From NCBI GenBank assembly GCA_009886115.1, contig VFJJ01000130.1, positions 1 to 49,710 on the forward strand: a DNA stretch of 49,710 nucleotides, in the 5' to 3' direction. Origin of the DNA: Actinomycetota bacterium (lineage in GTDB: Bacteria; Actinomycetota; Acidimicrobiia; IMCC26256; VFJJ01). A model generated the notes under the pieces. The model was not told where the DNA came from, did not search any database, and saw only the letters and a program-made list of their open reading frames with translations. Positions 1 through 38,328 of the stretch are shown in pieces. The translations under genes and the position numbers were made by a program. Within the stretch, counting starts at the first letter, position 1, and the number at the start of each line of letters is the position of its first letter.

Positions 1-105
1 CCGGAAACCCGAGCTCAACTTCTCCAACGACTTGTTGAACTCGATCCCGGTACTGGTCAGGTTCCTGTAGGCGTTGATCGCCCCGATGTTCTGATTGATG
101 CGCAC
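1..105 (-). CDS. fliC: Flagellin, N-terminal part (runs off window start)
   Basis: Not in ORF track. Manual reverse-complement gives GGAGG then GTG at 105: MRINQNIGAINAYRNLTSTGIEFNKSLEKLSSGFR, the classic flagellin N-terminus. Confidence 0.95.
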   Translation of the reverse strand, partial: MRINQNIGAINAYRNLTSTGIEFNKSLEKLSSGFR

Positions 106-109
106 TGTC

Positions 110-180
110 AACCTCCGTGTCGATGAGTGCGAACTCTGGGAGTGGGTGAACCCCTAGGGGGTTTCACGAGCATCCATGCT
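110..180 (-). promoter_or_regulatory. fliC 5' leader with two putative CsrA sites
   Basis: Minus strand: hairpin AGCA-TGGA-TGCT (169-180), a second hairpin (146-167), and CACGGAGG overlapping the SD; csrA and fliW are in the window. Confidence 0.7.
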
Positions 181-308: not shown

Positions 309-950
309 TCAACTCGAATGGTGAAGAACCCCTGGGAGTCCCCGACACCGCTGGGGGAGGTCTTCGTGCCCCTCCCGAGCCGAGGTGAACCGGACCGAGG
401 CGACCCGGCGCCCATCGGGCAGCGTCCGGAGAGCGCCCTGTCCCTGACGCATCCCCGCTGCTGTCATCACCCGGGCCGCCGCGGCGTTCCACGGCACAGC
501 CTCGGCCCAGACCTCACGCACGCCGAGATGCTCATGGGCCAGGCGCAACGCCAGGGTCACCGCCTCGGTGGCGATCCCCCGGCCGCGGCCCCGGCGATGC
601 ACGCTGAAGCCGAGCTGGACGGGCATGTGCTGCGGATCACCCTCGGGCATGGCCACGAGCTGCACGTGCCCGAGGAGCAGACCCGTCCTTGCATCGTCGA
701 TCGCCAGGTCGGCGATGAGGGGGTCGAGCGAGGCGTGCGCGATGTATTCGCGCGAGAACTCGACGACATCGTCGAGCGGGAGATCCCGATAGCCGTGGTT
801 CTCTCGGGACCGGTCGTCGTCGTACGCCGCAACCAGGTCGTCGAGGTCGGCCTCGGTGAGCGGACGGAGATCGACCCCGGAGCCGTGGAGCAGATGATGC
901 CGTCTTCCGGGGCCACCCGGCCGGCATTCGAGCCACGCATCGACCGTCAC
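309..950 (-). CDS. GNAT N-acetyltransferase (RimJ/RimL-like)
   Basis: LRPLTEADL, LGFSVHRRGRGRGIATEA acetyl-CoA motif, PWNAAAARV. Confidence 0.85.
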   Translation of the reverse strand: MTVDAWLECRPGGPGRRHHLLHGSGVDLRPLTEADLDDLVAAYDDDRSRENHGYRDLPLDDVVEFSREYIAHASLDPLIADLAIDDARTGLLLGHVQLVAMPEGDPQHMPVQLGFSVHRRGRGRGIATEAVTLALRLAHEHLGVREVWAEAVPWNAAAARVMTAAGMRQGQGALRTLPDGRRVASVRFTSAREGHEDLPQRCRGLPGVLHHSS

Positions 951-999: not shown

Positions 1000-1026
1000 T
1001 AAACAGCCGGCGGCCCCGGCCGATGG
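1000..1026 (+). promoter_or_regulatory. Sigma28 promoter of fliS
   Basis: TAAA-N15-GCCGATGG, near-perfect sigma28 consensus. Confidence 0.8.
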
Positions 1027-1100
1027 GAGTCCGGGCCGCCCCTTGGGTGGCCGGCCAGGGTCTCGGCCGCCGCACCACGACAGCTCGAGGGCAGCACAGC

Positions 1101-1484
1101 GTGAATGCTCCGAACCGCTACCAGACCGACTCCATCTCCACTGCGGGACCGGCGCAGTTGGTGCTCATGCTCTACGACGGGGCCCTGACCGCGATCATGC
1201 GGTCGCGCGTTGCCCTCCTCGAGGGTGGGCCGATCGCTGTGGAGGTGTCGCACCGCGAGCTGCAGCGATGCCAGGACATCGTGTGGGAGCTGCGCATGTC
1301 GCTCGATCGCGACCGCGGCGGACCGATCGCGGCCAGCCTCGGTTCGCTCTACGACTACTGCATCGAGCAGCTCATCGCCGCGAACATCACCAAGGACGCG
1401 ACCAAGCTCGACATCGTCCAGGAGGTCGTCGGCGAGCTGCGCAGCGCGTGGGCCGAAGCCTGTTGCGGCGTCCCGACCGGCTGA
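1101..1484 (+). CDS. fliS: Flagellin export chaperone FliS
   Basis: YQTDSISTAGPAQLVLMLYDGAL, QDIVWELRMSLD, LGSLYDY, ELRSAW; GTG 1101 preferred over ATG 1023, which overlaps the promoter. Confidence 0.93.
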   Translation: MNAPNRYQTDSISTAGPAQLVLMLYDGALTAIMRSRVALLEGGPIAVEVSHRELQRCQDIVWELRMSLDRDRGGPIAASLGSLYDYCIEQLIAANITKDATKLDIVQEVVGELRSAWAEACCGVPTG

Positions 1485-1549
1485 AAGGGACGGCAGGGGC
1501 GGGATCGGGGCACAGCGAACGCCAACCGAGCCCGCACCGGCAGACCGGG

Positions 1550-1578
1550 CTCAACCACCACCACTGATCGTCCGATGA
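1550..1578 (+). promoter_or_regulatory. Sigma28-like promoter in fliS-flgB intergenic region
   Basis: CTCA-N17-TCCGATGA. Confidence 0.55.
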
Positions 1579-1584
1579 GACGTC

Positions 1585-1710: not shown

Positions 1711-1712
1711 CG

Positions 1713-1739
1713 TTCACCCCTGAAAGCGAGCACCGATGA
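1713..1739 (+). promoter_or_regulatory. Possible sigma28-like promoter of flgB operon
   Basis: TTCA-N15-ACCGATGA directly after the terminator. Confidence 0.4.
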
Positions 1740-2107
1740 TCGAGCGGTCCAGCAGCATCGCCGACACGACGATGAAGGCGATCGAGTACGCCATGGGCGG
1801 GCTCTCGCGCCGGGCCGACGTGCGAGCCAACAACATCGCCAACGGCGAGACCCCCGGGTTCAAGGCCAAGAGCCTGAGCTTCGAGCGGCAGCTCGGTCAC
1901 GCGCTGCGCAACGGCGAGATCGACAACGTGGCCGGGTTCTCGCAGGGCCTGCGCGACACCACCCCCGACGCCTTCGACAACACCGTCGAGCTCGAGGAGG
2001 AGGTGGCCGAGATGACCAAGGACAACCTCATGGTCACGGCCATGGTCAACGCCTACAACTACAAGGTCGGTCTCCTGCGTTCGGCCATCTCGGGCGGCGG
2101 TCGCTGA
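1736..2107 (+). CDS. flgB: Basal-body rod protein FlgB
   Basis: RADVRANNIANGETPGFKAK, NTVELEEE; start may be ATG 1772. Confidence 0.93.
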   Translation: MIERSSSIADTTMKAIEYAMGGLSRRADVRANNIANGETPGFKAKSLSFERQLGHALRNGEIDNVAGFSQGLRDTTPDAFDNTVELEEEVAEMTKDNLMVTAMVNAYNYKVGLLRSAISGGGR

Positions 2108-2109
2108 TC

Positions 2110-2526
2110 ATGGGCATGGGACCGTTCAGCACGATCGACGTCAGCACGACCGGGATCACGTTCTCGCGTTTCTGGCTCGACACGCTCGCTCACAACATGG
2201 CCAACGTCAACACCGTGCGCTCCTTCGACGAGGAGCCGTTCCGGGCCAAGTTCCTGCGCGCCGAGGAGACCGCCTCCGCCGACCGCGGCGGTCCCGGGCG
2301 AGGCGTGCACCTCGAGGAGATCGTTGCTACGCAAGGAGATCCGACTGTCGTGTTCGACCCCGACCACCCCCTGGCCAACGCACAGGGCCTCGTGAAGCGG
2401 GCGATGGTCGACATGGCCGGACAGATGTCGGACCTCATCGTGGCCCAGCGGTCGTACCAGATGAACATCCGCGTGGTGCAGGCCGCCAAAGAGGCCTACG
2501 AAGCAGCGCTCCGGGTCGGCCGGTAG
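2110..2526 (+). CDS. flgC: Basal-body rod protein FlgC
   Basis: AHNMANVNT, FDPDHPLANAQGLV, MSDLIVAQRSYQMN; ATG 2110 just after the flgB stop. Confidence 0.95.
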   Translation: MGMGPFSTIDVSTTGITFSRFWLDTLAHNMANVNTVRSFDEEPFRAKFLRAEETASADRGGPGRGVHLEEIVATQGDPTVVFDPDHPLANAQGLVKRAMVDMAGQMSDLIVAQRSYQMNIRVVQAAKEAYEAALRVGR

Positions 2527-2576
2527 GGCCGGGACCAGGACCAGAACCAGATGATCCAGAGGACGGGACACCAATC

Positions 2577-2891
2577 ATGAGCATCGGTGGCATTGCCAGC
2601 ATCGGCGGCGGGATCTCCCCGATCTCGCGCCCCATCCCGGGCATCGGCGCCGCCGAGATCGGGCCGGGGGGCGACAGCTTCAAGGACGCGGTCGCACGGG
2701 GGCTGCAGTCGGTGTCGAACCAGGAGAATCAGGCCGACGGCCTCAGCCAGGCCCTGGCCGCGGGCGAGCAGGTGCAGATCCACGACGTGATGGCCGCCAC
2801 CACCAAGGCCCAGCTGTCGGTCGATCTGCTCGTGCAGGTGCGCAACAAGGCCGTCGACGCGTACCGCGAGATCATGAACATGCAGGTCTGA
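2577..2891 (+). CDS. fliE: Hook-basal body protein FliE
   Basis: IHDVMAATTKAQLSVDLLVQVRNKAVDAYREIMNMQV. Confidence 0.96.
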   Translation: MSIGGIASIGGGISPISRPIPGIGAAEIGPGGDSFKDAVARGLQSVSNQENQADGLSQALAAGEQVQIHDVMAATTKAQLSVDLLVQVRNKAVDAYREIMNMQV

Positions 2892-2893
2892 CG

Positions 2894-4219
2894 ATGTCGA
2901 ACCCGACCGCGCTCGCCGTCGACGAGCTGTCCCAGCGCCTGCGCCGCACGGAGGTCTTCCGTGTCGGGGGCAGCGTCGCGGGCGTCATGGGCCACGAGGT
3001 GGAGGTGCGCGGGCTGCGTCTGCGGCTCGGCGACGTCCTCGGCGTCCACACCGAGGCCGGTGATCGCCTCGCTGAAGTCGTCGCTGTCGGCCCGGACTCG
3101 GCGAGCGCGCTCGTCTACGGCGAGACCGGCGGTATCGGCCGAGGTGATCGGGTCAGCCTGCGCCGCGAGGGCTTCGGCGCCGAGGTCGGAGCCGGACTGG
3201 TCGGACGGGTGATCGACGCATTCGGCCAGCCGATGGACGGAGGACCGCCCGTGCGGGGCGAACCCGTCCAGGTGCACATGGACGTTCCCGATCCGATGGA
3301 GCGCCAACGGATCTCGCAGCCCCTCCCCGTCGGGGTACGGGTCATCGACTCCCTGTGCACGATCGGACGAGGTCAGCGCCTCGGGATCTTCGGCGGCTCG
3401 GGTGTCGGCAAGTCGACGCTCCTCGGGATGATGGCCCGGGGCACCACGGCCGAGATCTCGGTCCTGGCGCTCATCGGTGAGCGCGGCCGTGAGGTGCGGG
3501 AGTTCATCGAGGACGACCTCGGCCCCGAAGGGATGCGCCGGTCGATCGTGGTGGTCGCCACCTCGGATCAGCCGCCGCTCGTCCGCCTGCGGGCCGGCTT
3601 CCTCGCCACGCGCATCGCCGAGTGGTTCGCCGATCGCGAGGCCGACGTGCTGTTGATGTTCGACTCACTCACCCGCATGGCCATGGCCCAGCGCGATGTG
3701 GGTCTCGCAGCGGGCGAGCCTCCCACGGCTCGCGGCTACACACCCTCGGTCTTCTCCCTGATGCCCAAGCTGCTCGAACGGGCGGGCCCCCGAGCCCGCG
3801 GCACGGTCACCGGCCTGTACACCGTGCTCGTCGACGGCGACGACATGAACGACCCGATCGCTGACGCCGCTCGCTCGATCCTCGACGGTCACATCGTGCT
3901 CGACCGTCGCATGGGCACCCTGGGGCGCTATCCGGCGATCGACCCGCTGGCCTCGTTGAGCCGGCTGGCGTCGAAGGTCACGACGCCCGAGCAGAGGGGC
4001 CAGGCCCAGGCCATCCGGGCTGCGCTCTCCGCAGCCGAGGAAGTGCGCGATCTGGTCGAGGTCGGCGCCTACGTGCCGGGCACGAATCCCTTGGCCGACA
4101 AGGGCTTGGCGGCGAGTCCCGACATCGTGCACGGCTTCTTGAAGCAGGACGCGCTCGAGGTGACGAGCTTCACCGACACGTGGGCCCGAGCTGCCGAGCT
4201 CGCCCGGAGGGTCGCATGA
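2894..4219 (+). CDS. fliI: Flagellar export ATPase FliI
   Basis: Walker A GGSGVGKST, ALIGERGREVREF, DSLTR, GEPPTARGYTPS, DPIADAARSILDGH. Confidence 0.97.
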   Translation: MSNPTALAVDELSQRLRRTEVFRVGGSVAGVMGHEVEVRGLRLRLGDVLGVHTEAGDRLAEVVAVGPDSASALVYGETGGIGRGDRVSLRREGFGAEVGAGLVGRVIDAFGQPMDGGPPVRGEPVQVHMDVPDPMERQRISQPLPVGVRVIDSLCTIGRGQRLGIFGGSGVGKSTLLGMMARGTTAEISVLALIGERGREVREFIEDDLGPEGMRRSIVVVATSDQPPLVRLRAGFLATRIAEWFADREADVLLMFDSLTRMAMAQRDVGLAAGEPPTARGYTPSVFSLMPKLLERAGPRARGTVTGLYTVLVDGDDMNDPIADAARSILDGHIVLDRRMGTLGRYPAIDPLASLSRLASKVTTPEQRGQAQAIRAALSAAEEVRDLVEVGAYVPGTNPLADKGLAASPDIVHGFLKQDALEVTSFTDTWARAAELARRVA

Positions 4220-4265: not shown

Positions 4266-4703
4266 GTGAAGAAGCGTGACCCCATCAAGACGCTGCTGCG
4301 GATCCGCGACATCCGCGAGCGTCAAGCCCGCGGGCGCCTGGCCGTGCAGCACCAGGAGCAGGCCAAGGCCGAGACCGCGCTCGAACGGCGTCAACGGGCC
4401 TACATGGAGCGCGACGTCCCGGCGCGCGAGCTCTCGCCCGCCCAACTCCGGGTGCTGAGCCTGCAGGGGATCCGTTCGCTCGAGCTCCTCAACGACGCCG
4501 CCCGGGCGCTCGACGAGGAACGGCTCCGCACCGAGCGCGTCCGCGACGCCTGGTCGCGAACCGCCAACGCGCTCCGGAGCGCCCAGCGTCTCGACGAGCG
4601 ACGCGAGATCGACGCAGCCGTTTCGGCCCGGAAGGCGTCCGACAAGGCGCTCGACGAGCTGGTGCTCACGCTGCGCGAACCCAAGCGGGGGAAGCGATCA
4701 TGA
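4266..4703 (+). CDS. fliJ: Flagellar export protein FliJ
   Basis: 145-aa coiled coil directly after fliI; TLLRIRDIRERQA, C-terminal KALDEL. Confidence 0.75.
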   Translation: MKKRDPIKTLLRIRDIRERQARGRLAVQHQEQAKAETALERRQRAYMERDVPARELSPAQLRVLSLQGIRSLELLNDAARALDEERLRTERVRDAWSRTANALRSAQRLDERREIDAAVSARKASDKALDELVLTLREPKRGKRS

Positions 4704-5431
4704 CGACGGACCTGCGCCCTGCCGGCCTCGACCGGGTACTGGCCCGCATGGCCGAGCTGCGCTCGAGCATGGGCGCGGGCAGATCGTCGGGCCCCACGTT
4801 CGACGACATGATGCTTGCTGCGGAGCGCCGCCCGACCGGCCCGGTCTATGCCGTCGCCGAGAGCCTCCCCGAGACATCGACCACCGCTGCAGCCGACGCG
4901 CTGCTCTCGACGGCCTCGGCCTATCCCCGCGTGGGCTCGACCACCGGGCTCGCCGGGACCGCATCGACGATCCCGGCCGTGGCCGACCTGTTCGACCCCA
5001 GCGCTCCGATCGATCCTTCGTGGGCGGCGGCACTGCCCGAGGCGGGGATGCCCTGGAGCGGAGCCATCGGGGATGCGGCTGCCCGCAACGGCGTCGACCC
5101 TCGACTGCTCAGCGCGCTGGTCTGGACCGAGTCGGGCTTCCGGCCTGAGGCCGTCTCCGAAGCCGGGGCCCGGGGTCTCGCTCAGCTCATGCCAGCCACC
5201 GCGGCCGGGCTCGGAGTCGATCCCGACGATCCGCTGCAGAACCTCGACGGCGGCGCCCGCTACCTCCGATCCGCCCTCGACCGCTTCGGTCGCCTCGACC
5301 TGGCCCTGGCCGCGTACAACGCCGGTCCTCGCCGGGTCGACGAGGCCGGCGGTGTTCCCGACATCCCCCAGACCCGCGCCTACGTGAGCAGGGTTCTCGA
5401 TCGCTACCGCCTCCTGGGAGGCCCGACATGA
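4700..5431 (+). CDS. Lytic transglycosylase (SLT domain)
   Basis: TESGF, GARGLAQLMP, ALAAYNAG. Confidence 0.93.
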   Translation: MTTDLRPAGLDRVLARMAELRSSMGAGRSSGPTFDDMMLAAERRPTGPVYAVAESLPETSTTAAADALLSTASAYPRVGSTTGLAGTASTIPAVADLFDPSAPIDPSWAAALPEAGMPWSGAIGDAAARNGVDPRLLSALVWTESGFRPEAVSEAGARGLAQLMPATAAGLGVDPDDPLQNLDGGARYLRSALDRFGRLDLALAAYNAGPRRVDEAGGVPDIPQTRAYVSRVLDRYRLLGGPT

Positions 5432-7254
5432 ACATCGCGTCCACCATCGTCGCTAGCGGAAGGGCCGAGCTCACCGGCATCCGAGCCGTCGACGCTCTCG
5501 GAGCCCCACGGATCCGCGGGGCGGGCACGTCGTCCGCCTTCAGCACGGTCCTGCAGAGCGAGCTCGACACCCCGACGACTGAAGCACGGCCCCGCACCGA
5601 CCGCCGGCCTGCCGGCGACCGCGCGCTGCGCGACCGTGATCACGACCATCGGCTTCCCGCAGCGCGCGCGGTTCGACCGAGCGCGCCGGCAAGCAACGAG
5701 CCCGCCATGGTCGACCGCACCGACGACCTCGAGGCCACCGAGGAGACAGGGGCCACCGACGAGACAGGGGCCACCGAGGAGACCGAGGCCACCGAGGAGA
5801 CCGAGGCCACCGAGGAGACCGAGGAGACCGAGGAGACAGGGGCCTCGCGCTCCGGACGGCTCGAGCACGATCCGCACCCGAGCGCGTCGGTGAGCCCGAC
5901 CGCCGTGGCGGCGCCGACGACGGCCGCTCCCCAACTTGCGGCACCGCCGACGACCGAGAGACCTGGTGACGTCGTCGTCGCAGCGATCGGTGCGCCCGCG
6001 TCCAGCGCAGTCGACGCCGTCGACGCGAGCCGGACCGCACCGGCCGTCGCCGCCCTGGCCGACACCCCGAACGGGCACACGAGCCCAGCCAACGCGGCGG
6101 CGACGGTGGCGTCGGGAGCGACGGCCGATGCGAGCACCGCGGCGACTGCCCTCGCACCGGCGACGACCGAGCTCAACGTGGCGCCGGGCTCGCCCGCACC
6201 GGTCTCGGCCACACCCGTCCCGAGCCCGACCGCGACAGCGCCTGCCGCGGTGACGCCAGGAGCCGAACCGTCGATAGCGACGCCGATCGCCGTCGATCCG
6301 GTCCCCGTGACGGCGGCCACTGTCCTCGCCGGAGTCGTCGCCAGCCCGGTCTCGAAGGCAACGTCGGGTGCCCGTGCCGCCGAAGACGAGCTGGCGCCGA
6401 CCGACGCTGCCGCTGCGACGACCCCGAGCGCGAGCACGGCGGCCGTTGCGACCACGGACACGGCCGCCAGCGCTGCTCTCGGCGGCGAAACAGCGGACGA
6501 CACCAGCGAAGCCGACGACGATCAGGTCGCCACCTCCGACGTCGCCGCACCGACCGAGCGCCCACAGACCACCGATGCGACGCCGATGGCGATCGCGACG
6601 GCCGACCCGGGTGCCGCGGCCCAGCTCGCCGCGGCCGCGGCCGCGGGGGCGCCCATCTCGACCGAGCTCACGGAGAGTGCACCGGCGACCACGAGCGGGC
6701 CCCGACCGGTAGGTGAGACCCCGATCGTGGGCGCCACCGCGACGACAGGACCAGCGGCTCCGGCAGGCTCGCTCACCGGTCCGAACAGCCTGGTCGAGCC
6801 GAAGATCGTTCCTTCGGAGACCCCGGCACCGACGAGCACCGCAGCCCAGCGGCTGATGGACATCGTCGAGCGTCTCGAGCACGCTCCCCCGCCTCGGCGG
6901 ATGTTCGTCGAGCTCCCCGAGCTCGCCGGCGCCCGGGTGGAAGTGGCGCTGCGCGGAACCGAGGTCCACGTTCGCATCGTCGGGGGATCGGCGATGTCGG
7001 CCGGCGACGGCTCGGACCGTGAGGCCTTCGGCTCCTTGGCCCGCGACCTCGATCGGGCACTCGCAGATCGGGGCTTCAGCCTCGGGGACAGCTCGGCCCG
7101 ACGTCAGGGCCACTCCCGCTCCGGCACCGACGACGAGCGTCCACCGCCCAACGGCGACCGCGCTCGGCCGATGACCGACGACGGATCACCGCGGCGATCT
7201 CGCCGCAGCGCGGGCGACGGGCCCGGAGCGGTACCGAGCGGATTGAGGATCTGA
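5428..7254 (+). CDS. fliK: Hook-length control protein FliK (putative)
   Basis: Long A/T/P-rich low-complexity region, FliK_C-like end (VELPELAGARVEVALRGTEVHVRI, LDRALADRGFSL), directly upstream of flgD. Confidence 0.75.
   Translation: MNIASTIVASGRAELTGIRAVDALGAPRIRGAGTSSAFSTVLQSELDTPTTEARPRTDRRPAGDRALRDRDHDHRLPAARAVRPSAPASNEPAMVDRTDDLEATEETGATDETGATEETEATEETEATEETEETEETGASRSGRLEHDPHPSASVSPTAVAAPTTAAPQLAAPPTTERPGDVVVAAIGAPASSAVDAVDASRTAPAVAALADTPNGHTSPANAAATVASGATADASTAATALAPATTELNVAPGSPAPVSATPVPSPTATAPAAVTPGAEPSIATPIAVDPVPVTAATVLAGVVASPVSKATSGARAAEDELAPTDAAAATTPSASTAAVATTDTAASAALGGETADDTSEADDDQVATSDVAAPTERPQTTDATPMAIATADPGAAAQLAAAAAAGAPISTELTESAPATTSGPRPVGETPIVGATATTGPAAPAGSLTGPNSLVEPKIVPSETPAPTSTAAQRLMDIVERLEHAPPPRRMFVELPELAGARVEVALRGTEVHVRIVGGSAMSAGDGSDREAFGSLARDLDRALADRGFSLGDSSARRQGHSRSGTDDERPPPNGDRARPMTDDGSPRRSRRSAGDGPGAVPSGLRI
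5731..5844 (+). repeat. In-frame 18/9-bp tandem repeat (ATEETE/G) in fliK
   Basis: Repeated GCCACCGAGGAGACC/AG and GAGGAGACC units. Confidence 0.9.
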
Positions 7255-7255: not shown

Positions 7256-7789
7256 ATGCCCGAAGTCACGTACCAGCCGATCACGACGGTGCCCCGAGGA
7301 CCCGCCGTCGCTGCGCCCCGACAGGTGGTGGGAGGGAGCTCCATCCTCGGGGGCCTGGGCTCGGACGCCTTCTTGAAGCTGTTCATCGCGCAGCTCAAGT
7401 ACCAGAACCCCATGGAGCCCATGGACGGCACGCAGATGATGGCGCAGACCAGCCAGTTCACCATGGTCGAGACGCTGCAGGCCCTGTCGGAAGCCCAGAA
7501 GACGACCATGGGCTACACCCAGATGTCGACCGCCACCGGCCTCATCGGTCGCAGCGTGACCGCGCTCGACAACGGTGAGACGGTCACCGGGGTGATCGAC
7601 CGGGTCCAGGTCAGCACCGACGGGCCCGTCCTCGTGATGGGCGCCCGCAAGGTGCCGATCACTGCGGTCATCAGCGTCGGCGTCCCGCCGGCCTCGACGG
7701 GTGCCACCCCGGGCCCGGCCACCAGCACCACCCCGACCACGGGTGCCACCCCGGGCCCGGCCACCAGCACCACCCCGACCACCCCCTGA
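7256..7789 (+). CDS. flgD: Hook capping protein FlgD
   Basis: FLKLFIAQLKYQNPMEPMD, AQTSQFT, LIGRSV. Confidence 0.95.
   Translation: MPEVTYQPITTVPRGPAVAAPRQVVGGSSILGGLGSDAFLKLFIAQLKYQNPMEPMDGTQMMAQTSQFTMVETLQALSEAQKTTMGYTQMSTATGLIGRSVTALDNGETVTGVIDRVQVSTDGPVLVMGARKVPITAVISVGVPPASTGATPGPATSTTPTTGATPGPATSTTPTTP
7697..7780 (+). repeat. Perfect 42-bp tandem duplication in flgD 3' end
   Basis: ACGGGTGCCACCCCGGGCCCGGCCACCAGCACCACCCCGACC twice. Confidence 0.95.
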
Positions 7790-7851
7790 GCTACCGCTCA
7801 GCCCGCCCGAGCACCACGCGTTCCCCACGGAGCAAGGAGCCCCAACCCACC

Positions 7852-9102
7852 ATGATGCGATCGATGTTCTCCGGTGTTTCCGGTCTGCGAGCCCACCAGA
7901 CGATGATGGACGTCGTCGGCAACAACATCGCCAACGTCAACACCGCCGGATTCAAGGCATCCCAGGTCACCTTTCAAGAGGCGCTGTCCCAGACCGTTCG
8001 TGGAGCCTCCGGCAGCAGCGCGGCGGGGCGAGGTGGCACGAACCCCATCCAGCTCGGCCTCGGTGTGATCGTGGCCTCTGTCGACGGTGTCTTCACCCAG
8101 GGTGCCACCCAGGTGACGGGCCGCTCGACCGACCTCGCCGTGCAGGGTGACGGCTTTTTCATCGTCACGCAGAATCCCGCCGACCAGACCTACACCCGGG
8201 CCGGGGCGTTCAACTTCGACGAGGATGGCTACCTCGTCAACCCCGATGGCCTCAAGGTCCAGGGGTGGGTCCCGAACGCGGTGGGCGTGATCGACACCAA
8301 CACGACCGTCGCCGACATCACCCTGCCGATCGGCCAGGTGATCGACCCCACCCCCACGACGACGGCCTCGATCGGCGGGAACCTCTCGGCCGACGCCCCG
8401 GTCGCCACGCAGTCGGTCACCACCATCGGGGTGTACGACTCCGAAGGGCGAGCCCACCAGCTCCAGGTCACCTTCACCAAGACCGCGACGAACGCGTGGG
8501 ACGCCGCCGGACTCCTCGACGGTGTGACAACGATCGACATGAACGGGGCGGGTGCCGGCACGGTCGCCGCGGTCACGTTCAGCCCGACGGGCCAGCTCAC
8601 GTCGGGCAACATCACGCCTACCGCGATCGCGATCGCCGGCGCGAACACCATGACCGTCGTGCTCGACCTCACCGGCAGCAGCCCGCTGGTGCAGTTCGGT
8701 GGTGCATCGACGGCCGCGGCGTTCACGCAGAACGGCGAGGCCATCGGGTCCCTGCGGAACTTCGCCATCGGAGGCGACGGCTCGGTCACCGGCCAGTTCT
8801 CCAACGGCGCCACCAAGGTGCTGGCTCGCGTCGCCATCGCGACGTTCAACAACCCCACGGGTCTCACCCGGCAGGGGAACTCGAACTTCAGCCAGACGGT
8901 CAACTCCGGTCAGCCGATCATCGGGACGGCCGGCACGGGGAACCGCGGCACGCTCATCGCCGGCGCGGTCGAGATGTCGAACGTCGATCTGGCCCGGGAG
9001 TTCACCTCGATGATCATCGCCCAGCGTGGATTCCAGGCCAACTCCCGCATCATCACGACCTCGGACGAGATGCTGAACGAGCTCGTGAACCTCAAGCGCT
9101 GA
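7852..9102 (+). CDS. flgE: Hook protein FlgE
   Basis: GNNIANVNTAGFK, DLAVQGDGFF, YTRAGAF, EMSNVDLAREF, AQRGFQANSR. Confidence 0.97.
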   Translation: MMRSMFSGVSGLRAHQTMMDVVGNNIANVNTAGFKASQVTFQEALSQTVRGASGSSAAGRGGTNPIQLGLGVIVASVDGVFTQGATQVTGRSTDLAVQGDGFFIVTQNPADQTYTRAGAFNFDEDGYLVNPDGLKVQGWVPNAVGVIDTNTTVADITLPIGQVIDPTPTTTASIGGNLSADAPVATQSVTTIGVYDSEGRAHQLQVTFTKTATNAWDAAGLLDGVTTIDMNGAGAGTVAAVTFSPTGQLTSGNITPTAIAIAGANTMTVVLDLTGSSPLVQFGGASTAAAFTQNGEAIGSLRNFAIGGDGSVTGQFSNGATKVLARVAIATFNNPTGLTRQGNSNFSQTVNSGQPIIGTAGTGNRGTLIAGAVEMSNVDLAREFTSMIIAQRGFQANSRIITTSDEMLNELVNLKR

Positions 9103-9162: not shown

Positions 9163-9195
9163 GTGGGTCACAGGGGAACAACCCGGAGGTACCAC

Positions 9196-9462
9196 GTGAT
9201 CCTCGTTCATCGCCTGAAGGGCGAGCCGCTCTTCCTCAACGCCGACCTCATCGAGTGCATCGAGTCGACCCCCGACACGATGGTCACGCTCGCCGACGGC
9301 CGGAAGTACGCCGTGGCCGAGCGACCCGAGCAGGTCGTCGAGGCAGCGCGGACGTTCCGGGCATCGGTGCTCGTGGCGGCTCAGGACATGCGGTCGGGTC
9401 CTCCTGCTCCTGTGCTCCAACTGGCGCCGGTTCGTCTCACCGGTGAGGACGACGACGACTGA
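9196..9462 (+). CDS. flbD: Flagellar protein FlbD (SwrD family)
   Basis: MILVHRLKGEPLFLNADLIECIESTPDTMVTL; GGAGG then GTG 9196. Confidence 0.92.
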   Translation: MILVHRLKGEPLFLNADLIECIESTPDTMVTLADGRKYAVAERPEQVVEAARTFRASVLVAAQDMRSGPPAPVLQLAPVRLTGEDDDD

Positions 9463-9509
9463 TTCATCGCTGACCGGAGACGGCCTGCGATGCGACGGAG
9501 GAACCGAAG

Positions 9510-10154
9510 ATGGCCAAGAAGGCCAAGGGCAAGCCCCTCGCTGAAGGCGAGGAGCCCCCGAAGAAGGACAACAAGAAGAAGATCATCATCGTGGTCGCGC
9601 TGGCCGCGGCCTGGAAGATGGGCTTCCTGCCCATCGGGGGGTCGAAGGACGCCTCGGCGGTGACGACCACGACCGCCATGTGGCCGGGCGATGCCGTCGA
9701 CGTCGGCGAGCCCCTGGTCGTGAACCTGGCCGACGAGACCACGACGGCCTATGCCCGTGTAGGGATCGCCCTGGTGCTCCCCGGGCACGGCGTGCAACCG
9801 GGAACCGAGGACGAGGCTCACGCGCTCCCCGGCGCATCGCAGACGGTCCTCGCCGACGGCCTCCCGGTCGTCCCCGGCGGCTTCGGTGGTGGACGCGTCG
9901 GCGCCCCGCAGGTCGTGACCCCGGCTCCAGATCAGGGAGCGGGCGCGGTCGACCCGGTCGTGGCCCTGGAGAAGAAGTTCCCCCGGATGCGAGCTGCCGC
10001 CACCGACATCGTCCGAGCCCACACGTCCGAGGAGCTCGAGTCGGAGGACGGGACCGTGATGCTCGAAGACGAGCTCACCGAAGCGGCGTTCGAGATCTTC
10101 GGTGACCGCGACATCTACGGGGTCATCGTCACCGAGCTCGTCATCCAGAAGTAG
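9510..10154 (+). CDS. fliL: Basal body-associated protein FliL
   Basis: Lys-rich N-terminus then TM, VVNLAD, C-terminal TELVIQ; upstream of fliM. Confidence 0.85.
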   Translation: MAKKAKGKPLAEGEEPPKKDNKKKIIIVVALAAAWKMGFLPIGGSKDASAVTTTTAMWPGDAVDVGEPLVVNLADETTTAYARVGIALVLPGHGVQPGTEDEAHALPGASQTVLADGLPVVPGGFGGGRVGAPQVVTPAPDQGAGAVDPVVALEKKFPRMRAAATDIVRAHTSEELESEDGTVMLEDELTEAAFEIFGDRDIYGVIVTELVIQK

Positions 10155-10198
10155 GCCACGGCGGCCCGGCTCGGAGTCGGAGTCGGACGAGGTCTTCC

Positions 10199-10225
10199 TA
10201 CAGACGGCGGATCGGTGGCCGATAG
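10199..10225 (+). promoter_or_regulatory. Sigma28-like promoter of fliM
   Basis: TACA-N15-GCCGATAG. Confidence 0.65.
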
Positions 10226-10261
10226 ATGACGAACGGTACATAGCGGAACGAGACGGACGAG

Positions 10262-11239
10262 ATGGCGGACGGCAAACTCAGCCAGACGGAGATCGATGCG
10301 CTGCTCGCCGCCATGCGCCCGCAGTCGGTCGCGTCCACGCCGACGAAGAACTACGTCGAATTCGACTTCCGCCGCCCGAGCAAGTTCACCCGTGAGCTCA
10401 TCCGCTCGGTCGAGGCGTCACACGAGCTCTTCTCCCGGCGCTTCGCCGGGCTCGTGACCCAGCAGCTCCGGGCGGTCGTGCACGTCGAACCGCTGGCGAC
10501 CGACCAGATCACCTATCAGGACTACATCCGGTCGATGGCCAACCCGACCGTGCTCACGATTCTGAACCTCGCTCCATGGCCCGGCCAGGCCGTGATCGAG
10601 CTTTCGACCCAGATGGCGTTGACCCTGGTCGACCGCATGCTCGGCGGGCCCGGGCGGCCCATCCCCCTGCGGCGTCCCACCGATCTCGAGATCACCCTCA
10701 TACGCGTCCTGATGGACGCCGCCTGCTCGGCATTGAAGGAGACCTTCGCCGACGTGCTCGAGGTGACGCCCACGGTCAGCTCGGTGGAGCTCAACCCGAA
10801 CTTCGTCCAGGCCGTGGCTCCGTCGGAGATGGCGCTGCTGTTGTCGTATCAAATGTCGGTCACGTCGACCCGCCGCACCGACGGTCTCTTGACGCTCTGC
10901 TATCCGTTCTCGACCCTGCAGCCGGCGATGGAACGGCTCGAGCGTCAGGTGTGGACCGAAGACCGTCCCAGCCTGATGAGCGCCAACTCGAGCGGGATTC
11001 CACCGCTCAACGCACATCTCCGCGAGGTGGACGTCCCGATCACGGTCCGTCTGCGGGTCAGCAAGATCCCGGCGATCGACGTGGCGACGCTGCGACCAGG
11101 CGACGTGCTGCGACTCGATCATCGGGTGGGAGAGCCAGTGATCGGCACGGTCGAGGGCCGCGAGGTCCTCGAAGGCAACGTCGGACGCGTGGGGCGGAGA
11201 TTGGCCCTCCAGCTGACCGACTGGTTGGTCGACCAATGA
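10262..11239 (+). CDS. fliM: Motor switch protein FliM
   Basis: LSQTEIDALL CheY-binding peptide, FDFRRPSKF, MLGGPG, SpoA-like end. Confidence 0.96.
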   Translation: MADGKLSQTEIDALLAAMRPQSVASTPTKNYVEFDFRRPSKFTRELIRSVEASHELFSRRFAGLVTQQLRAVVHVEPLATDQITYQDYIRSMANPTVLTILNLAPWPGQAVIELSTQMALTLVDRMLGGPGRPIPLRRPTDLEITLIRVLMDAACSALKETFADVLEVTPTVSSVELNPNFVQAVAPSEMALLLSYQMSVTSTRRTDGLLTLCYPFSTLQPAMERLERQVWTEDRPSLMSANSSGIPPLNAHLREVDVPITVRLRVSKIPAIDVATLRPGDVLRLDHRVGEPVIGTVEGREVLEGNVGRVGRRLALQLTDWLVDQ

Positions 11240-11306
11240 CACAGGACCACTCGACCCGTCTCCACCGAGACGGCGCGCGCCCGAGCGGACACATCCGGGG
11301 ACGACG

Positions 11307-12368
11307 ATGAGCACCACCTCCACTTCCACCGAGTTCTTCAACGACGCGGTGGGTGAGATCGGCAACATGATGATGGGCGCCGGGGCCACCAACCTGGCCG
11401 GCCTCCTGGGGGTACCCGTCAGCATCACGACGCCACAGGTCGACGAGGGTGTCCCCGACGATGCCTATCCCGAAGGTCGTTCGGTGGTCGTGCGGGTCGA
11501 GCTCACCGGCGCGGTCTCCGGGCACTCGGTCTTCCTCTTGCCGACCGAGCAGACCATCGAGATCGTCAAGCTCATGACCGAGGGCATGGACCTCCCGGAG
11601 GAGGAGATCCTCGGCGAGTTCGGCATGTCTGCCATCGGCGAGGCGATGAACCAGCTCATCGCCGGCGCGGCCCGGGCGCTCGGCGAGATCGTCGGCGGGC
11701 TCGTCGACATCACGCCCCCGTTCATCGAGATCCTCGAGCGCGAAGACATCGACATCGGCTTCGACACCACGCGCACCTGCACGATCAGCTTCAACGTGCA
11801 GATCGGCGCCAACATGACGGGCCGGTTGTCGTGGCTCATGGACCGGGAGCTCGCCGCCGGGCTCATCCAGCGCGTCGAAGCCCACATGGCGGGCGGCTCG
11901 ACCCCGTCGCCGTCCGAACCTGTCGCTGCGTCGCCGCCACCGCCGGTTGCGGCCGCGCCCGCAGCTGCTCCCCCCCCTGTCTACGCCCCGGCGTCCGAGC
12001 CGTCGTATGCGGCCGCGGCCGCGCCCCCGCCTGGATACGCAGCGGCGCCGGCGCCTCAAGTTCAGCCGGCGTCCTTCCCCGAGCTCCGGGCTCCGGTGGG
12101 CCCACCGGCATCACAGGCCGACATCGCCAAGTTGTCGGACGTGACCCTCAACGTGACCGTCGAGCTCGGACGGACCACCTTGAAGGTCAAGGAACTGCTG
12201 GGCCTCGGGCCCGGCAGCGTCGTTGAGCTCGACCGGATCGCGGGTGCTCCCGTCGACATCCTGGTCAACGGAACGCTCGTCGCCCGAGGTGATGTCGTGG
12301 TGGTCGACGACGAGCTCGGCGTCCGAGTCAGTGAAGTCATCGATCCATCGGACAGGAAGGCCAACTGA
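11307..12368 (+). CDS. fliY: FliY (CheC-like phosphatase domain fused to FliN)
   Basis: GEIGN and GEAMN ExxN motifs, Pro/Ala linker, FliN domain VTVELGRT...GSVVELD...VDILVNG. Confidence 0.88.
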   Translation: MSTTSTSTEFFNDAVGEIGNMMMGAGATNLAGLLGVPVSITTPQVDEGVPDDAYPEGRSVVVRVELTGAVSGHSVFLLPTEQTIEIVKLMTEGMDLPEEEILGEFGMSAIGEAMNQLIAGAARALGEIVGGLVDITPPFIEILEREDIDIGFDTTRTCTISFNVQIGANMTGRLSWLMDRELAAGLIQRVEAHMAGGSTPSPSEPVAASPPPPVAAAPAAAPPPVYAPASEPSYAAAAAPPPGYAAAPAPQVQPASFPELRAPVGPPASQADIAKLSDVTLNVTVELGRTTLKVKELLGLGPGSVVELDRIAGAPVDILVNGTLVARGDVVVVDDELGVRVSEVIDPSDRKAN

Positions 12369-12369
12369 A

Positions 12370-12729
12370 ATGGCACGAATCATGGTTGTCGACGATGCAG
12401 CGTTCATGCGGACGGTGCTCAAGAAGATCCTCAGCGAGGCGGGACACGAGGTCGTCGGTGAGGCGACCGACGGCGTCGACGCCTGCGCGAAGTACGCCGA
12501 GCTCAAGCCCGATCTCGTGACGATGGACATCACCATGCCCAACATGGATGGGGTCCAGGCGCTCAAGCAGATCCGATCGATCGACGGCAACGCCCGGATC
12601 ATCATGTGCTCGGCCATGGGCCAGGAGTCACTTGTCGTCGAGGCGATCAGCAGTGGCGCCCGCGACTTCGTGGCCAAGCCCTTCGAGGCCGGCCGCGTCG
12701 TCGGTGCCATCGCCAAGGCCCTGCTCTGA
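12370..12729 (+). CDS. cheY: Chemotaxis response regulator CheY
   Basis: MARIMVVDDAAFMR, PDLVTMDITMP, MCSAMGQ, FVAKPF. Confidence 0.93.
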   Translation: MARIMVVDDAAFMRTVLKKILSEAGHEVVGEATDGVDACAKYAELKPDLVTMDITMPNMDGVQALKQIRSIDGNARIIMCSAMGQESLVVEAISSGARDFVAKPFEAGRVVGAIAKALL

Positions 12730-12805
12730 CGCTCATCGCACCTGCGATCGCGAATCCGATGCGCTCTCACACCTTCCTTCGTTCGACCAGCCGCGAGGCG
12801 AGTCG

Positions 12806-13303
12806 ATGACGACGGCCGACATCGTTCGGCTCGTGGTCTCGCTCGTCCTCGTGGTGGGCGGGCTCTTCGTGCTGCGCTGGTGGACCCAGCGCGGCCGCGG
12901 CCGCAGCCTCCGTCGGCAGGCGATGGTGGGGCGCGTCCCGATTCGCGTGATCGGCCGAGCCGGTCTGGCGCGAGGCGCGAGCGTCGCCGTCATCGAGGTG
13001 GGAACCCAGCGGTTCCTCGTCGGTGCCAGCGAGCACTCGGTGTCGCTCCTCTCGGAGCTCCCGGTCACCGGGCACGTCGAGAGCCGCTTGGAAGCGAGCG
13101 CCCCCGGATCGCAGGCGACCGGTGGCGCCGATGCTGGCGCGGCACCCGTCGCCGATGAAGTCCCCGAGCAGTTCGACTCCTCGGTCAGCACCCTTGATTC
13201 CTCCACGGATGCACATACTGGGCCACGGATGGGCCTCGTTGCGCGCTTGCAGCTGATGACGCTGCGAGCGCCCGACCGACGGCCATCCCGTGCAGTCTCG
13301 TAA
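12806..13303 (+). CDS. fliO: FliO/FliZ flagellar biosynthesis protein
   Basis: N-terminal TM, IRVIGRAGL...VAVIEVGTQRFLVGASEHSVSLL; precedes fliP. Confidence 0.85.
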   Translation: MTTADIVRLVVSLVLVVGGLFVLRWWTQRGRGRSLRRQAMVGRVPIRVIGRAGLARGASVAVIEVGTQRFLVGASEHSVSLLSELPVTGHVESRLEASAPGSQATGGADAGAAPVADEVPEQFDSSVSTLDSSTDAHTGPRMGLVARLQLMTLRAPDRRPSRAVS

Positions 13304-14255
13304 CGTCAGCGTCCGTCGCAGTCTCTCCAACCATCGTCAGGCTCTTCCCCCCGAGGTTCTTGCGCGGCGGGCCGCGATCCTGGCCAAGGTGCGCTCGTGG
13401 TCGTGGCTGTGCGCCGGCGCGATGTTCATCGTCTTGTCGTTCGGTGTCGCCAACGCGCCCGACGTGCGCGCCCAGGAAGCTCCCAGCGTGCCGCCCGACC
13501 CCGTGTTGACCGTCGACCCGCCCGTGATCGGTGAGCCCGATCCCCTGGTCGAGGTGCAATCGCCCGACGCCCCCAACGACCCCAACGACATCAACATCAA
13601 GGTCGACTCGGGCGAAGGCACGCTCTCGCGCACGGTGGTCATCATCCTCCTGATGACGGTGGCCTCGATCGCCCCTTCGGTCTTGTTGCTCACGACCTGC
13701 TTCACGCGCTTCATCATCACGTTGTCGTTGACCCGCAACGCCCTCGGCGCCCAGACCCTGCCACCGACGCAGGTCCTGGTCGGGTTGGCTCTGTTCCTCA
13801 CGGTCTTCGTGATGCGCCCGATCTTCGTGCAGATCAACGACGACGCCGTCCAGCCCATGCTGAACAACGAGATCGAGGCGGGCGAGGCGTTCGAGAAGGG
13901 CTTCGACCCGTTGCGCAAGTTCATGCTCCGCCAGGTCGACGACAAGGACCTGGCCCTGTTCGTGAACCTGGCCGATCAGCCCAAGCCCGAGAGCAACGAG
14001 GACATCTCGCCGACGACACTCATCCCGGCCTACGTGATCTCCGAGCTGCGCCACGCCTTCGTGATCGGCTTCGTGATCTTCGTGCCGTTCCTCATCATCG
14101 ACCTGGTGGCGTCGTCGGTGCTGATGTCGATGGGCATGGTCATGCTCCCGCCGGTGTTCATCTCCCTGCCGCTCAAGCTCCTCCTGTTCGTGCTGGTCGA
14201 CGGGTGGAACCTCATCATCGGCTCGGTGGTCCGATCCGTCCAAGGAGTCACGTAG
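13290..14255 (+). CDS. fliP: Export gate protein FliP
   Basis: TCFTRFII, PPTQVLVGLALFLT, LIPAYVISEL, MGMVMLPP, KLLLFVLVDGW; start uncertain. Confidence 0.96.
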   Translation: MQSRNVSVRRSLSNHRQALPPEVLARRAAILAKVRSWSWLCAGAMFIVLSFGVANAPDVRAQEAPSVPPDPVLTVDPPVIGEPDPLVEVQSPDAPNDPNDINIKVDSGEGTLSRTVVIILLMTVASIAPSVLLLTTCFTRFIITLSLTRNALGAQTLPPTQVLVGLALFLTVFVMRPIFVQINDDAVQPMLNNEIEAGEAFEKGFDPLRKFMLRQVDDKDLALFVNLADQPKPESNEDISPTTLIPAYVISELRHAFVIGFVIFVPFLIIDLVASSVLMSMGMVMLPPVFISLPLKLLLFVLVDGWNLIIGSVVRSVQGVT

Positions 14256-14259
14256 CGCC

Positions 14260-14529
14260 ATGACCGACGCGCAAGTTCTCGATCTCGTTCGCAGCGGCCT
14301 GGTGCTCGGCGCCAAGGTGTCGGCGCCGCTGTTGATCGCCAGCCTCGTCGTGGGCGTGGCGATCTCGCTGCTGCAGACGGTCACGCAGATTCAGGAGATG
14401 ACGCTCACCTTCGTGCCCAAGCTCGTCGTCTCGGCGGTGATCATCCTCCTCGCCGGGAACTGGATGATGCACGAGATGGTCACCTGGGTCACCAACCTCT
14501 GGGGTGGGATCCCCGAGATGGTGAGCTGA
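14260..14529 (+). CDS. fliQ: Export gate protein FliQ
   Basis: QTVTQIQEMTLTFVPK. Confidence 0.97.
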   Translation: MTDAQVLDLVRSGLVLGAKVSAPLLIASLVVGVAISLLQTVTQIQEMTLTFVPKLVVSAVIILLAGNWMMHEMVTWVTNLWGGIPEMVS

Positions 14530-15293
14530 TGGACATCACGATCAACGCCCACTGGGTTGCGGGCTTCTTGTTCTCGGTCACGAGGATGGGAGCGTTCGTC
14601 GCGGCGTCGCCGGCATTCAACCGATCCCTCCCCCGGCTGGGTCGCCTGGCACTGGTGATGTCGGTGGGGCTGTTCCTCGCCGACCCGGTGTCCACCGAGC
14701 TCACCGTGGTGCGCATCGTGTACGGCGCGGCGATCAACCTCACCGTGGGCCTGATGATCGGGCTCTTGACGGGGTTCTTGTTCCATCTCTTCGCCATCGC
14801 CGGCGATCTCATCGACGTGCAGTCGGGGCTCGCCAACTCGGCCCTGTTCGATCCGGTCTCGGGCCACAACTCGGCGCTGTTCACCCGCATGTTCTCGATG
14901 ACCTCGCTCACCGTGTTCTTCCTGATCGGGGGCGATCGCCTGATGATCGCCGGGATGGCAACCAGCGTCGACGCCATCCCGCTCGACGGCACGATCTCCG
15001 TGAGCGACGGACTGGGCAACCTGATCCTGCCCCTGATCTCGCGCATCTTCGTCGCCGGCATCGAGTTGGCTGCGCCGGTGATGGCGGCGCTGTTCGTCAC
15101 CGATGCCGTCCTCGGCATCGCCAACCGGTTCGCGCCGCAGATGAACGTGTTCATGCTGGGCATGCCGATCAAGCTGCTGCTGACGCTCTCGACCGTGGGG
15201 ATCGTGCTGATGCTGTTCTCCCCCTTCGAGCAGGGGCTCCTCAACGACATCCCCCGCATCACCACCGACGTGCTCCGCGGCCTGCGGCCATAA
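14529..15293 (+). CDS. fliR: Export gate protein FliR
   Basis: AGDLIDVQSG, LAAPV, RFAPQMNVF. Confidence 0.96.
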   Translation: MDITINAHWVAGFLFSVTRMGAFVAASPAFNRSLPRLGRLALVMSVGLFLADPVSTELTVVRIVYGAAINLTVGLMIGLLTGFLFHLFAIAGDLIDVQSGLANSALFDPVSGHNSALFTRMFSMTSLTVFFLIGGDRLMIAGMATSVDAIPLDGTISVSDGLGNLILPLISRIFVAGIELAAPVMAALFVTDAVLGIANRFAPQMNVFMLGMPIKLLLTLSTVGIVLMLFSPFEQGLLNDIPRITTDVLRGLRP

Positions 15294-15324
15294 GGGCATT
15301 CGTCCGCTTCGCCCCGATCCGTCG

Positions 15325-15353
15325 TTCAAGGGGCGCCACCGACGTGCCGATAG
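15325..15353 (+). promoter_or_regulatory. Sigma28-like promoter of flhB-flhA
   Basis: TCAAG-N15-GCCGATAG. Confidence 0.7.
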
Positions 15354-15361
15354 CTGCTCCT

Positions 15362-15433
15362 GACCCAGGATGGGTCGCGACCCGTCGGGTCGGCATCACC
15401 CGGAGCCACGGATCGGCGCTCCCCGCGAAAGCG
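15362..15433 (+). promoter_or_regulatory. Structured flhB leader with two GGA-loop hairpins (putative CsrA sites)
   Basis: GACCC-AGGAT-GGGTC (15362-15376), GCC-ACGGATC-GGC (15405-15417), CGC-GAAA-GCG tetraloop. Confidence 0.55.
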
Positions 15434-15440
15434 CGAGGCT

Positions 15441-23083: not shown

Positions 23084-23089
23084 TGGCCG

Positions 23090-23117
23090 CTCAAGTTCTC
23101 CGGGCTTCTGCCGACAG
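23090..23117 (+). promoter_or_regulatory. Sigma28-like promoter of flgN-like gene
   Basis: CTCA-N16-GCCGACAG, 7 nt before ATG 23125. Confidence 0.65.
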
Positions 23118-23124
23118 GAGCCCC

Positions 23125-23652
23125 ATGAAGCATGAGCAGGTGCTGGTGCAGTTGGTGAACGTGCTCGACCAGGAACAGGCTGCGCTGCGCCGCCTCCTCT
23201 ACCGGATGAAGCTGTGCACACTGCACCTGGCCGGTGGAGACGCCCGATTCCTCGCCCGGGCGTCCGACGACCTCAACGAGGCCCAGCAGACGTTGGCCGG
23301 GCTCGAGCTGTCGCGTGCGGTGATCGTGGCCGAAGCCGCGGCCATGCTCGACATCCCCGAGGCCGAATGCACGCTCGCGGTCATGTCGGCCCACGCACCA
23401 TCGCATCTGCAACTCGCGTTCGAGGGGTTCCGCAACAAGTCGATCGGTCTCGTGCGCGAGATCGAGGAGCTGCGCTCGATGAGCGAGCACGTGGCCACCC
23501 GGGCCGTGGCCCTGGTCGTCGATCGCATCGATCGACTCACCATGGCGTCGCTCTCGCTCACCTACGGCGAGACGTACAGCGAGAGATACGGCAGCGAGGC
23601 CTCACCAGGCTCGACCGCCGTATCGAGCGGCCGCTTCGACACCGCGCTCTAG
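23125..23652 (+). CDS. FlgN-family export chaperone (paralog 1)
   Basis: LRRLLYRM...LAGGDARFLARA...LELSRA resembles actinobacterial FlgN and the protein at 39690-40217. Confidence 0.75.
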   Translation: MKHEQVLVQLVNVLDQEQAALRRLLYRMKLCTLHLAGGDARFLARASDDLNEAQQTLAGLELSRAVIVAEAAAMLDIPEAECTLAVMSAHAPSHLQLAFEGFRNKSIGLVREIEELRSMSEHVATRAVALVVDRIDRLTMASLSLTYGETYSERYGSEASPGSTAVSSGRFDTAL

Positions 23653-38306: not shown

Positions 38307-38328
38307 CGCCGACTCTCCTGTCCCGGGC

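Follow-up and report, generated by a model that had tools for sequence, protein, structure and literature searches.

The window analysed here, a stretch of 49,710 nucleotides (nt) from an uncultured bacterium of the class Acidimicrobiia (GenBank assembly GCA_009886115.1, contig VFJJ01000130.1), carries a long flagellar operon in which fliE is directly followed by fliI, at the place where canonical clusters hold fliF, fliG and fliH, the genes of the MS ring, the rotor and the ATPase stalk. A metagenome bin of 5.45 Mb in 224 contigs (genome G000; completeness 95.6%, contamination 3%) includes the window as its contig C142, and the three genes are found intact on another contig, C15, of the same bin. 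The reading favoured here, with a probability of about 0.9, is that these genes encode a rotating flagellum of the ordinary kind, with its gene order rearranged, in which fliF-fliG-fliH would have been moved and would not be missing; the system is a known one in a gene-order variant, and not a different machine. The block would have been excised cleanly, in an ancestor, from its usual place, flanked by fliE and fliI, leaving these two genes 2 nt apart, and the moved genes would have stayed intact as an operon of their own, with a sugar-modification island diverging on one side and lgt converging on the other. The main operon and the detached block would probably be coordinated in trans, via a promoter motif resembling that of sigma-28 (FliA/WhiG).

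The junction is formed by three features of the window:

2577..2891, plus strand: fliE (PF02049, 89.4 bits; TIGR00205, 84.2 bits against a cut-off of 30)
2892..2893, plus strand: the 2-nt fliE-fliI junction (CG), the slot of fliF-fliG-fliH in canonical clusters
2894..4219, plus strand: fliI, the export ATPase (ATP-synt_ab, 282.6 bits, and T3SS_ATPase_C; TIGR01026, 510 bits against a cut-off of 379.5), with the Walker A motif GGSGVGKST

An earlier reading of this DNA, made from the letters of the window (the sequence-only reading), had placed the fliE stop at 2891 and the fliI start at 2894 without any remnant between them, and the letters, read directly as CAGGTC TGA CG ATG TCG, bear this out: only 2 nt separate stop from start, and there is therefore no space for a gene remnant. 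The flgB-flgC junction of the same operon has the same geometry (TGA-TC-ATG, 2 nt). The further statement that fliF, fliG and fliH are absent from the window also holds, as family searches of the genome and Pfam scans of the window's long open reading frames (ORFs) gave no match to FliF, FliG or FliH among the window ORFs. Searches of the whole genome with the profiles PF01514, PF01706 and PF02108, on the other hand, yielded exactly one match each, all on C15, over the Pfam cut-offs and without internal stops:

C15 8937-10616: fliF, 559 amino acids (aa) (PF01514, YscJ_FliF, 171.9 bits, and PF08345, YscJ_FliF_C; TIGR00206, 174.8 bits against a cut-off of 129.75)
C15 10693-11724: fliG, 343 aa (FliG_N, 107.2; FliG_M, 108.2; FliG_C, 134.9 bits; TIGR00207, 328.6 against 226.7)
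C15 11721-12287: fliH, 188 aa (PF02108, 45.8 bits against a cut-off of 24.1), an assignment that its place directly after fliG supports

FliF reaches 54.1 bits with the SctJ model, whose cut-off is 161.95, and FliG carries the motifs EHPQT and MFVFED, which matter functionally and are invariant in an eight-sequence alignment. The three genes form an operon that is flanked on the 5' side of fliF, in divergent orientation, by a sugar-modification island (FdtA/WxcM-like protein, DegT aminotransferase, GNAT, methyltransferase and glycosyltransferase family 2 (GT2) genes), and on the 3' side of fliH, in convergent orientation, by lgt, the sole copy of this gene in the genome. Relocation of the three genes as a module was one of two explanations proposed from the window, and it is the one that agrees with an intact, separate operon in the same genome.

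Among the genomes examined, the split was found in only five, namely G000, G001 (of the same genus), G254, G321 and G322, and adjacency of fliE and fliI in relatives, which had been suggested as a check, is seen in the last four. Of 60 relatives searched, 13 have FliG; 12 of these belong to other families of the same order, and all 12 show flgB-flgC-fliE-fliF-fliG-(gap)-fliI, FliH being found by tblastn in three of them, with a gap of the size of fliH in the remaining nine. In a class-wide sample of 301 genomes, 35 encode both FliG and FliI; among the 34 besides G000, the two genes lie on one contig in 33, at most 1.4 kb apart in 31, and 4.5-5 kb apart in G312 and G157. The exception is G254, where fliG and fliI are on different contigs and flgB-flgC-fliE-fliI is closed by a TGA-GC-GTG junction. 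A scan of genome records with a FliG alignment gave 80 loci, two of which (L051 and L052, from G321 and G322) have fliS...fliF-fliG-fliH without flgB, flgC and fliE upstream, while both genomes likewise have fliE followed by fliI. In G321, both parts are seen on a single contig of 53 kb, in the order lgt> flgB> flgC> fliE> fliI> ... flhA> orf535> <HD-GYP <sigma <fliW <flgL <flgK, continued by <fliH <fliG <fliF ... <fliS, so that the block lies upstream of flgK, unlike in G000.

In a tree of 34 genomes built from FliF, FliG, FliI and FlgC, the five split genomes form one clade, with a Shimodaira-Hasegawa-like approximate likelihood ratio (SH-aLRT) support of 98 for the four proteins and 99 for FliF and FliG. 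With FliI and FlgC alone, the free search leads to two changes; the tree constrained to one clade is 11.9 log-likelihood units better (approximately unbiased test, p 0.68). Since the five genomes form one clade, the trees fit a single ancestral excision as the most economical reading.

Smaller departures from the usual spacing, and some peculiarities of G321, were noted along the way. In one genus of Acidimicrobiia (L046 of G262, and G080), fewer than 100 nt separate fliG from fliI, with no fliH between them, and in another (L045 of G312, and G157) the 4.5-5 kb mentioned above are inserted between the two genes. G321 has, between fliE and fliI, a 45-aa ORF (L130, about 6810-7125, minus strand) with the peptide SQSDIDALI, and its FliI bears an N-terminal extension with LTQEEIDALV; both peptides resemble the CheY-binding peptide of FliM/FliY. 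A derivation of the G000 layout from that of G321 by one or two inversions, with lgt as landmark, was attempted and abandoned, as no simple scheme fits all orientations.

The most probable of the rival explanations, though a very improbable one, is that the native fliF, fliG and fliH were lost and that the C15 copy is a foreign replacement from another lineage. It can draw on the position of the C15 operon beside a variable sugar island, which is 78% identical between G000 and G001 while its flanks reach about 89-90%, and on the fact that flagellar proteins of G000 have their nearer counterparts in other Acidimicrobiia orders and not in its own: FliG of G000 and G001 shares 46-57% identity with other orders and 42-48% within the order. 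However, FliI, which was kept in the main operon, shows an equal affinity (63-68% to other orders and 53-57% within the order), and trees of 21 genomes for the moved genes (FliF and FliG) and for those that stayed (FliI and FlgC) agree in placing G000 and G001 in the same eight-genome clade, with an SH-aLRT support of 100 in both. The hypothesis that fliFGH is a xenolog was rejected on the strength of this agreement; as the affinity is the same in both gene sets, any transfer would have taken the whole system, and not fliFGH alone. A transfer of the whole flagellar region between orders within the class is possible on these grounds. Co-transfer of lgt with the region was also considered and set aside, the Lgt of G000 sharing 39-53% identity with that of same-order genomes (a set that includes the unpublished G054, on which nothing hinges) and 51-59% with that of G321, G322 and G254, ranges too close to decide.

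A more far-reaching and tentative view, which we hold to be doubtful, is that in one flagellar lineage of Acidimicrobiia fliFGH acts as a cassette that can move while its boundaries stay the same, having taken at least two positions after a single ancestral excision by which fliE and fliI became a tightly coupled pair, with the whole region possibly passed between orders. The positions in question are upstream of flgK-flgL-fliW in G254 and G321, and beside lgt and the sugar island in G000 and G001. If this were true, the earliest assembly module of the flagellum (MS ring, rotor and stalk) would be under separate transcriptional control.

Less probable still than a foreign replacement is an artefact of assembly or binning, in which the real chromosome would have the canonical order or C15 would come from another organism. 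The fragmentation and the 3% contamination of the bin give this idea some footing, as does the break of the window contig within a repeated flagellin gene. Nevertheless, G001 has the identical junction, TGACGATG, with about 90% DNA identity across the junction region and the order fliS-flgB-flgC-fliE-fliI-fliJ-SLT in common, and contigs of three other public metagenome runs bridge positions 2891 and 2894: record 10 of X2 spans 1864-3065 with 0 differences, record 15 of X3, from a different study, spans 1500-3423 with 9 differences, and record 4 of X10, an RNA library that may contain DNA, spans 2695-2967 with 0 differences. Because it is identical in G001 and bridged by independent contigs, the fliE-fliI junction is genuine and not an assembly artefact, and the misassembly that the sequence-only reading had allowed for does not materialise. 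The adjacency recurs, moreover, in G254, G321 and G322. As to C15, its G+C content is close to that of the window contig (68.7% and 68.5%), its context is matched in G001 (lgt-fliH-fliG-fliF-FdtA-DegT), and every flagellar gene family that was searched is single-copy, so there is no second cluster to which it could belong.

The remaining parts of a rotating flagellum are encoded as well. The C-ring proteins (FliM and FliN/Y), the export gate (FliPQR, FlhA and FlhB) and the FliI ATPase are all found, FliM with both its N-terminal CheY-binding peptide (LSQTEIDALL) and the GGPG motif that had been read from the window, and the stator genes lie on a further contig:

C134 8820-9608, minus strand: MotA (MotA_ExbB and MotA_N)
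C134 7319-8620, minus strand: MotB (MotB_plug and OmpA)

The second explanation proposed from the window is an appendage or secretion machine that derives from a flagellum but does not rotate, and that would do without MS ring, rotor and stalk and use another membrane scaffold. Its sole support is that the window itself lacks fliF, fliG and fliH. It is refuted by intact copies of the three genes in the same genome and of the same flagellar lineage, a finding that the sequence-only reading had itself named as refuting, and is further reduced to a negligible probability by a FliG that keeps all three domains (N, M and C) along with the motifs EHPQ and MFVFED, by the MotA/MotB stators, by a FliM with both of its motifs, and by the presence of both parts on one contig in the related G321.

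Among the intact parts, the sequence-only reading had also counted the filament, which is only partly right, as the window has no intact filament gene and of flagellin only the first 114 nt:

1..114, minus strand: 5' part of a flagellin gene that is truncated where the contig begins (its translation contains RINQNIGAINAYRNLTSTGIEFNKSLEKLSSGFR)

A 121-nt copy of this 5' end, 98% identical, lies at the end of contig C5 (C5:60178-60288, plus strand), and two flagellin 3' ends lie at contig edges (C212:7761-7877 and C213:11896-12012, both on the minus strand). Flagellin is thus seen as two 5' fragments (C142 and C5) and two 3' fragments (C212 and C213) whose middles are unassembled, and with two ends of each kind at contig edges, there are therefore at least two flagellin genes in the genome, whose repeats broke the assembly, as such repeats usually do. 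On C212, the flagellin 3' end at the contig edge precedes a complete fliD. As judged from its genes, the parts list of a rotating flagellum would be complete apart from the unassembled flagellin middles. According to a survey of Actinobacteria (PMC10746217), FlgF/FlgG were lost in the lineage of Acidimicrobiia, Nitriliruptoria and Actinomycetia.

The place to which the block would have moved can be sketched with the help of G001. There, a single contig (C112) carries lgt, fliH-fliG-fliF, the sugar island, a protein of 1932 aa and then the 3' end of fliD. In G000, the window starts with the 5' end of flagellin in an orientation that matches the flagellin-fliD pair of C212. One consistent layout would be lgt> <fliH <fliG <fliF, sugar island>, <GT <fliD <fliC <GNAT, fliS> flgB> flgC> fliE> fliI>. 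Because the G001 contig links fliFGH to fliD by way of the sugar island, the block has probably not left its flagellar neighbourhood and would lie, oppositely oriented, upstream of flgB at a distance that we infer to be about 20 kb. The 1932-aa protein (L132, G001 C112, 13376-19174, minus strand), situated between the island and fliD, has three GT2 domains and is a candidate flagellin glycosyltransferase; the part of the island that carries it in G001 has no conservation at the DNA level in G000. The sugar island itself is possibly a flagellin-glycosylation island.

Two separated units of one organelle raise the question of their joint regulation. Sigma-28 promoters have a TAAA-like -35 element and a CGA-containing -10 element at a spacing of about 15-17 nt. 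The sequence CTCAA-N16-GTCGATG is found upstream of fliF, within a 370-nt region that is highly conserved between G000 and G001, and CTCAA-N16-TCCGATG upstream of flgB; at both places, the -35-like and -10-like elements are kept in G001 while the spacers differ. The predicted sites of the sigma-28-like motif and the corresponding sigma factor are as follows:

1551..1577, plus strand: TCAA-N16-TCCGATG, 159 nt 5' of flgB
959-985 (minus strand), 15326-15352 and 23020-23046 (minus strand): further sites in the window
C15 8721-8747 and C134 9651-9676 (minus strand): sites on other contigs
22130..23221, minus strand: sigma factor of the FliA/WhiG family (Sigma70 r2, r3 and r4 domains)

A relaxed form of the motif, TCAA-N15-17-NYCGAT[AG], has 109 matches genome-wide on both strands, six of them in 2574 nt of flagellar upstream sequence (0.026 expected), in front of the units flgB, fliF, GNAT-flagellin, flhB, the sigma-factor gene and motA. 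The shared motif, together with a FliA/WhiG-type sigma factor encoded in the window, makes co-regulation of flgB and fliF in trans plausible, and suggests that the two units may respond to the same factor. The true start of the sigma-factor gene probably lies downstream of 23221, and one motif site sits just 5' of this likely start, which hints at autoregulation.

Other elements of the leaders were also looked at. The flgB leader (1585-1740, plus strand) is strongly structured, with a minimum free energy of -74.7 kcal/mol (z -4.7); it contains a GC-rich hairpin of 12 bp and, behind it, UUGUUU some 20 nt ahead of the start codon, an arrangement kept in G001 that might serve for attenuation or for stabilisation. 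An Rfam search of the flgB and fliF leaders returned just one snoRNA match at chance level (E 0.15), and a repeat from the fliF upstream region, TGTCGATRC, was sought in the window and dropped, with one match against 1.03 expected.

Several observations count against an ordinary flagellum with a relocated, co-regulated block, or at least against parts of this reading. C15 and the window contig are unjoined in a bin as fragmented and contaminated as described, either the C212 or the C213 fragment may complete the flagellin gene at the left edge of the window, and it may be C213, with the second flagellin 3' end, that adjoins the window in the chromosome. FliH falls under every NCBIfam FliH equivalog cut-off (best score 49.6 against 180). 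The flagellum is known from its genes alone, and the RNA-library contig across the junction may be carried-over DNA. With regard to regulation, the flgB and fliF sites served to define the motif, leaving four of the six sites as independent; the sequences 5' of both flagellin genes, of fliD and of flgK gave no match to it; the sigma factor reaches 166.4 bits with TIGR02479, under the cut-off of 189.6; and a simple scan for sigma-70 promoters and terminators around fliFGH found nothing.

The organisation of the window is best appreciated by comparison with the fla/che operon of Bacillus subtilis, whose order is flgB-flgC-fliE-fliF-fliG-fliH-fliI-fliJ-...-fliK-flgD-flgE-flbD-fliL-fliM-fliY-cheY-fliO/Z-fliP-fliQ-fliR-flhB-flhA-flhF. 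In the window, the order is fliS, flgB, flgC, fliE, fliI, putative fliJ, SLT transglycosylase, putative fliK, flgD, flgE, flbD, fliL, fliM, fliY, cheY-like receiver, fliO, fliP, fliQ, fliR, flhB and flhA, beyond which an HD-GYP protein and the FliA/WhiG-type sigma factor are encoded on the minus strand. From flgB to flhA the two match gene for gene, including flbD, a fliY with CheC-like domains and the embedded cheY, except that the window is without fliF-fliG-fliH in the fliE-fliI slot, these being on another contig, and that it has the SLT transglycosylase after putative fliJ.

Broken flagellar clusters as such are well known. Helicobacter and Campylobacter have a separate fliF-fliG-fliH unit. 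Among the scanned loci outside Actinomycetota, several of Armatimonadota/Fimbriimonadales (L056, L057, L060 and L061) and of Fervidobacterium (L115 and L120) show no fliI in the 3-8 kb downstream of their fliG. According to a study of Campylobacterota, more than 50 flagellar genes in that phylum are spread over about 30 loci and functional rotating flagella are built nonetheless (PMC9321776), a dispersal that provides a precedent for fliFGH being apart from fliE and fliI. The present case differs from it in that only fliFGH has moved, the rest being one long canonical operon, and in that the organism is a monoderm actinobacterium. The survey of Actinobacteria, in the part available, describes flagellar clusters as common in Acidimicrobiia and their order as "relatively conserved" across the phylum, with no mention there of a detached fliFGH (PMC10746217); the five-genome clade departs from the order described in that part. 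This survey was the sole match of a full-text literature search on the flagellar fliF of Acidimicrobiia, and a search for a described fliFGH operon turned up only papers on E. coli operons.

The value of these results is mainly corrective, in that a flagellar operon seemingly without MS ring and rotor would be remarkable, whereas its genes have merely moved; a gene "missing" from a 50-kb window calls for a check of the whole genome before a biological reading is made. They also add a clean gene-order change, probably of single origin, in a little-studied class of actinobacteria, provide an example from nature in which fliE and fliI are coupled with no FliH between them, and yield a candidate flagellar promoter motif for Acidimicrobiia.

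The other genes of the window that belong to the flagellar system, or lie next to it, are these:

309..950, minus strand: GNAT acetyltransferase gene, between the flagellin gene and fliS (PF13302, 74 bits)
1023..1484, plus strand: fliS (PF02561, 116.6 bits)
1736..2107, plus strand: flgB (PF00460; tblastn orthologues in the same place in relatives)
2110..2526, plus strand: flgC (PF06429; ATG 2 nt past the flgB stop)
4266..4703, plus strand: putative fliJ, from its position after fliI, conserved at that place in relatives
4700..5431, plus strand: SLT-domain lytic transglycosylase (PF01464, 89.2 bits)
5428..7254, plus strand: putative fliK (hook-length control), from its position before flgD and weak C-terminal tblastn matches in relatives
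7256..9102, plus strand: flgD (7256-7789) and flgE (7852-9102), by Pfam scan
9163..12368, plus strand: flbD, fliL, fliM and fliY, by Pfam scan
12223..20117, plus strand: cheY-like receiver, fliO, fliP, fliQ, fliR, flhB, flhA and a 535-aa ORF, by family scans
36823..39690, minus strand: fliW, flgL and flgK, by Pfam and NCBIfam scans

Searches of Pfam and NCBIfam gave no match for putative fliJ or putative fliK. A flagellin-like ORF at 37413-38306 (minus strand) is FlgL (TIGR02550, 198.9 bits against a cut-off of 127.2). Opposite the GNAT gene and before fliS, a long ORF at 318-995 (plus strand), with no match to a Pfam family, is probably spurious. The 535-aa ORF after flhA (18510-20117, plus strand) has a weak match to the N-terminal part of FlhF (36.6 bits against a cut-off of 174) and none to a GTPase domain, and is kept in this position in G321. 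Finally, the sigma/HD-GYP pair and fliW-flgL-flgK lie about 13 kb apart, and the interval (about 23650-36500) is taken up by metabolic genes, which encode an aminotransferase, an ABC transporter, a luciferase-like monooxygenase, an aldehyde dehydrogenase, an amidohydrolase, a nitrilase-family protein and a GntR regulator; in G321 and G254 the distance amounts to only about 2.5 kb.

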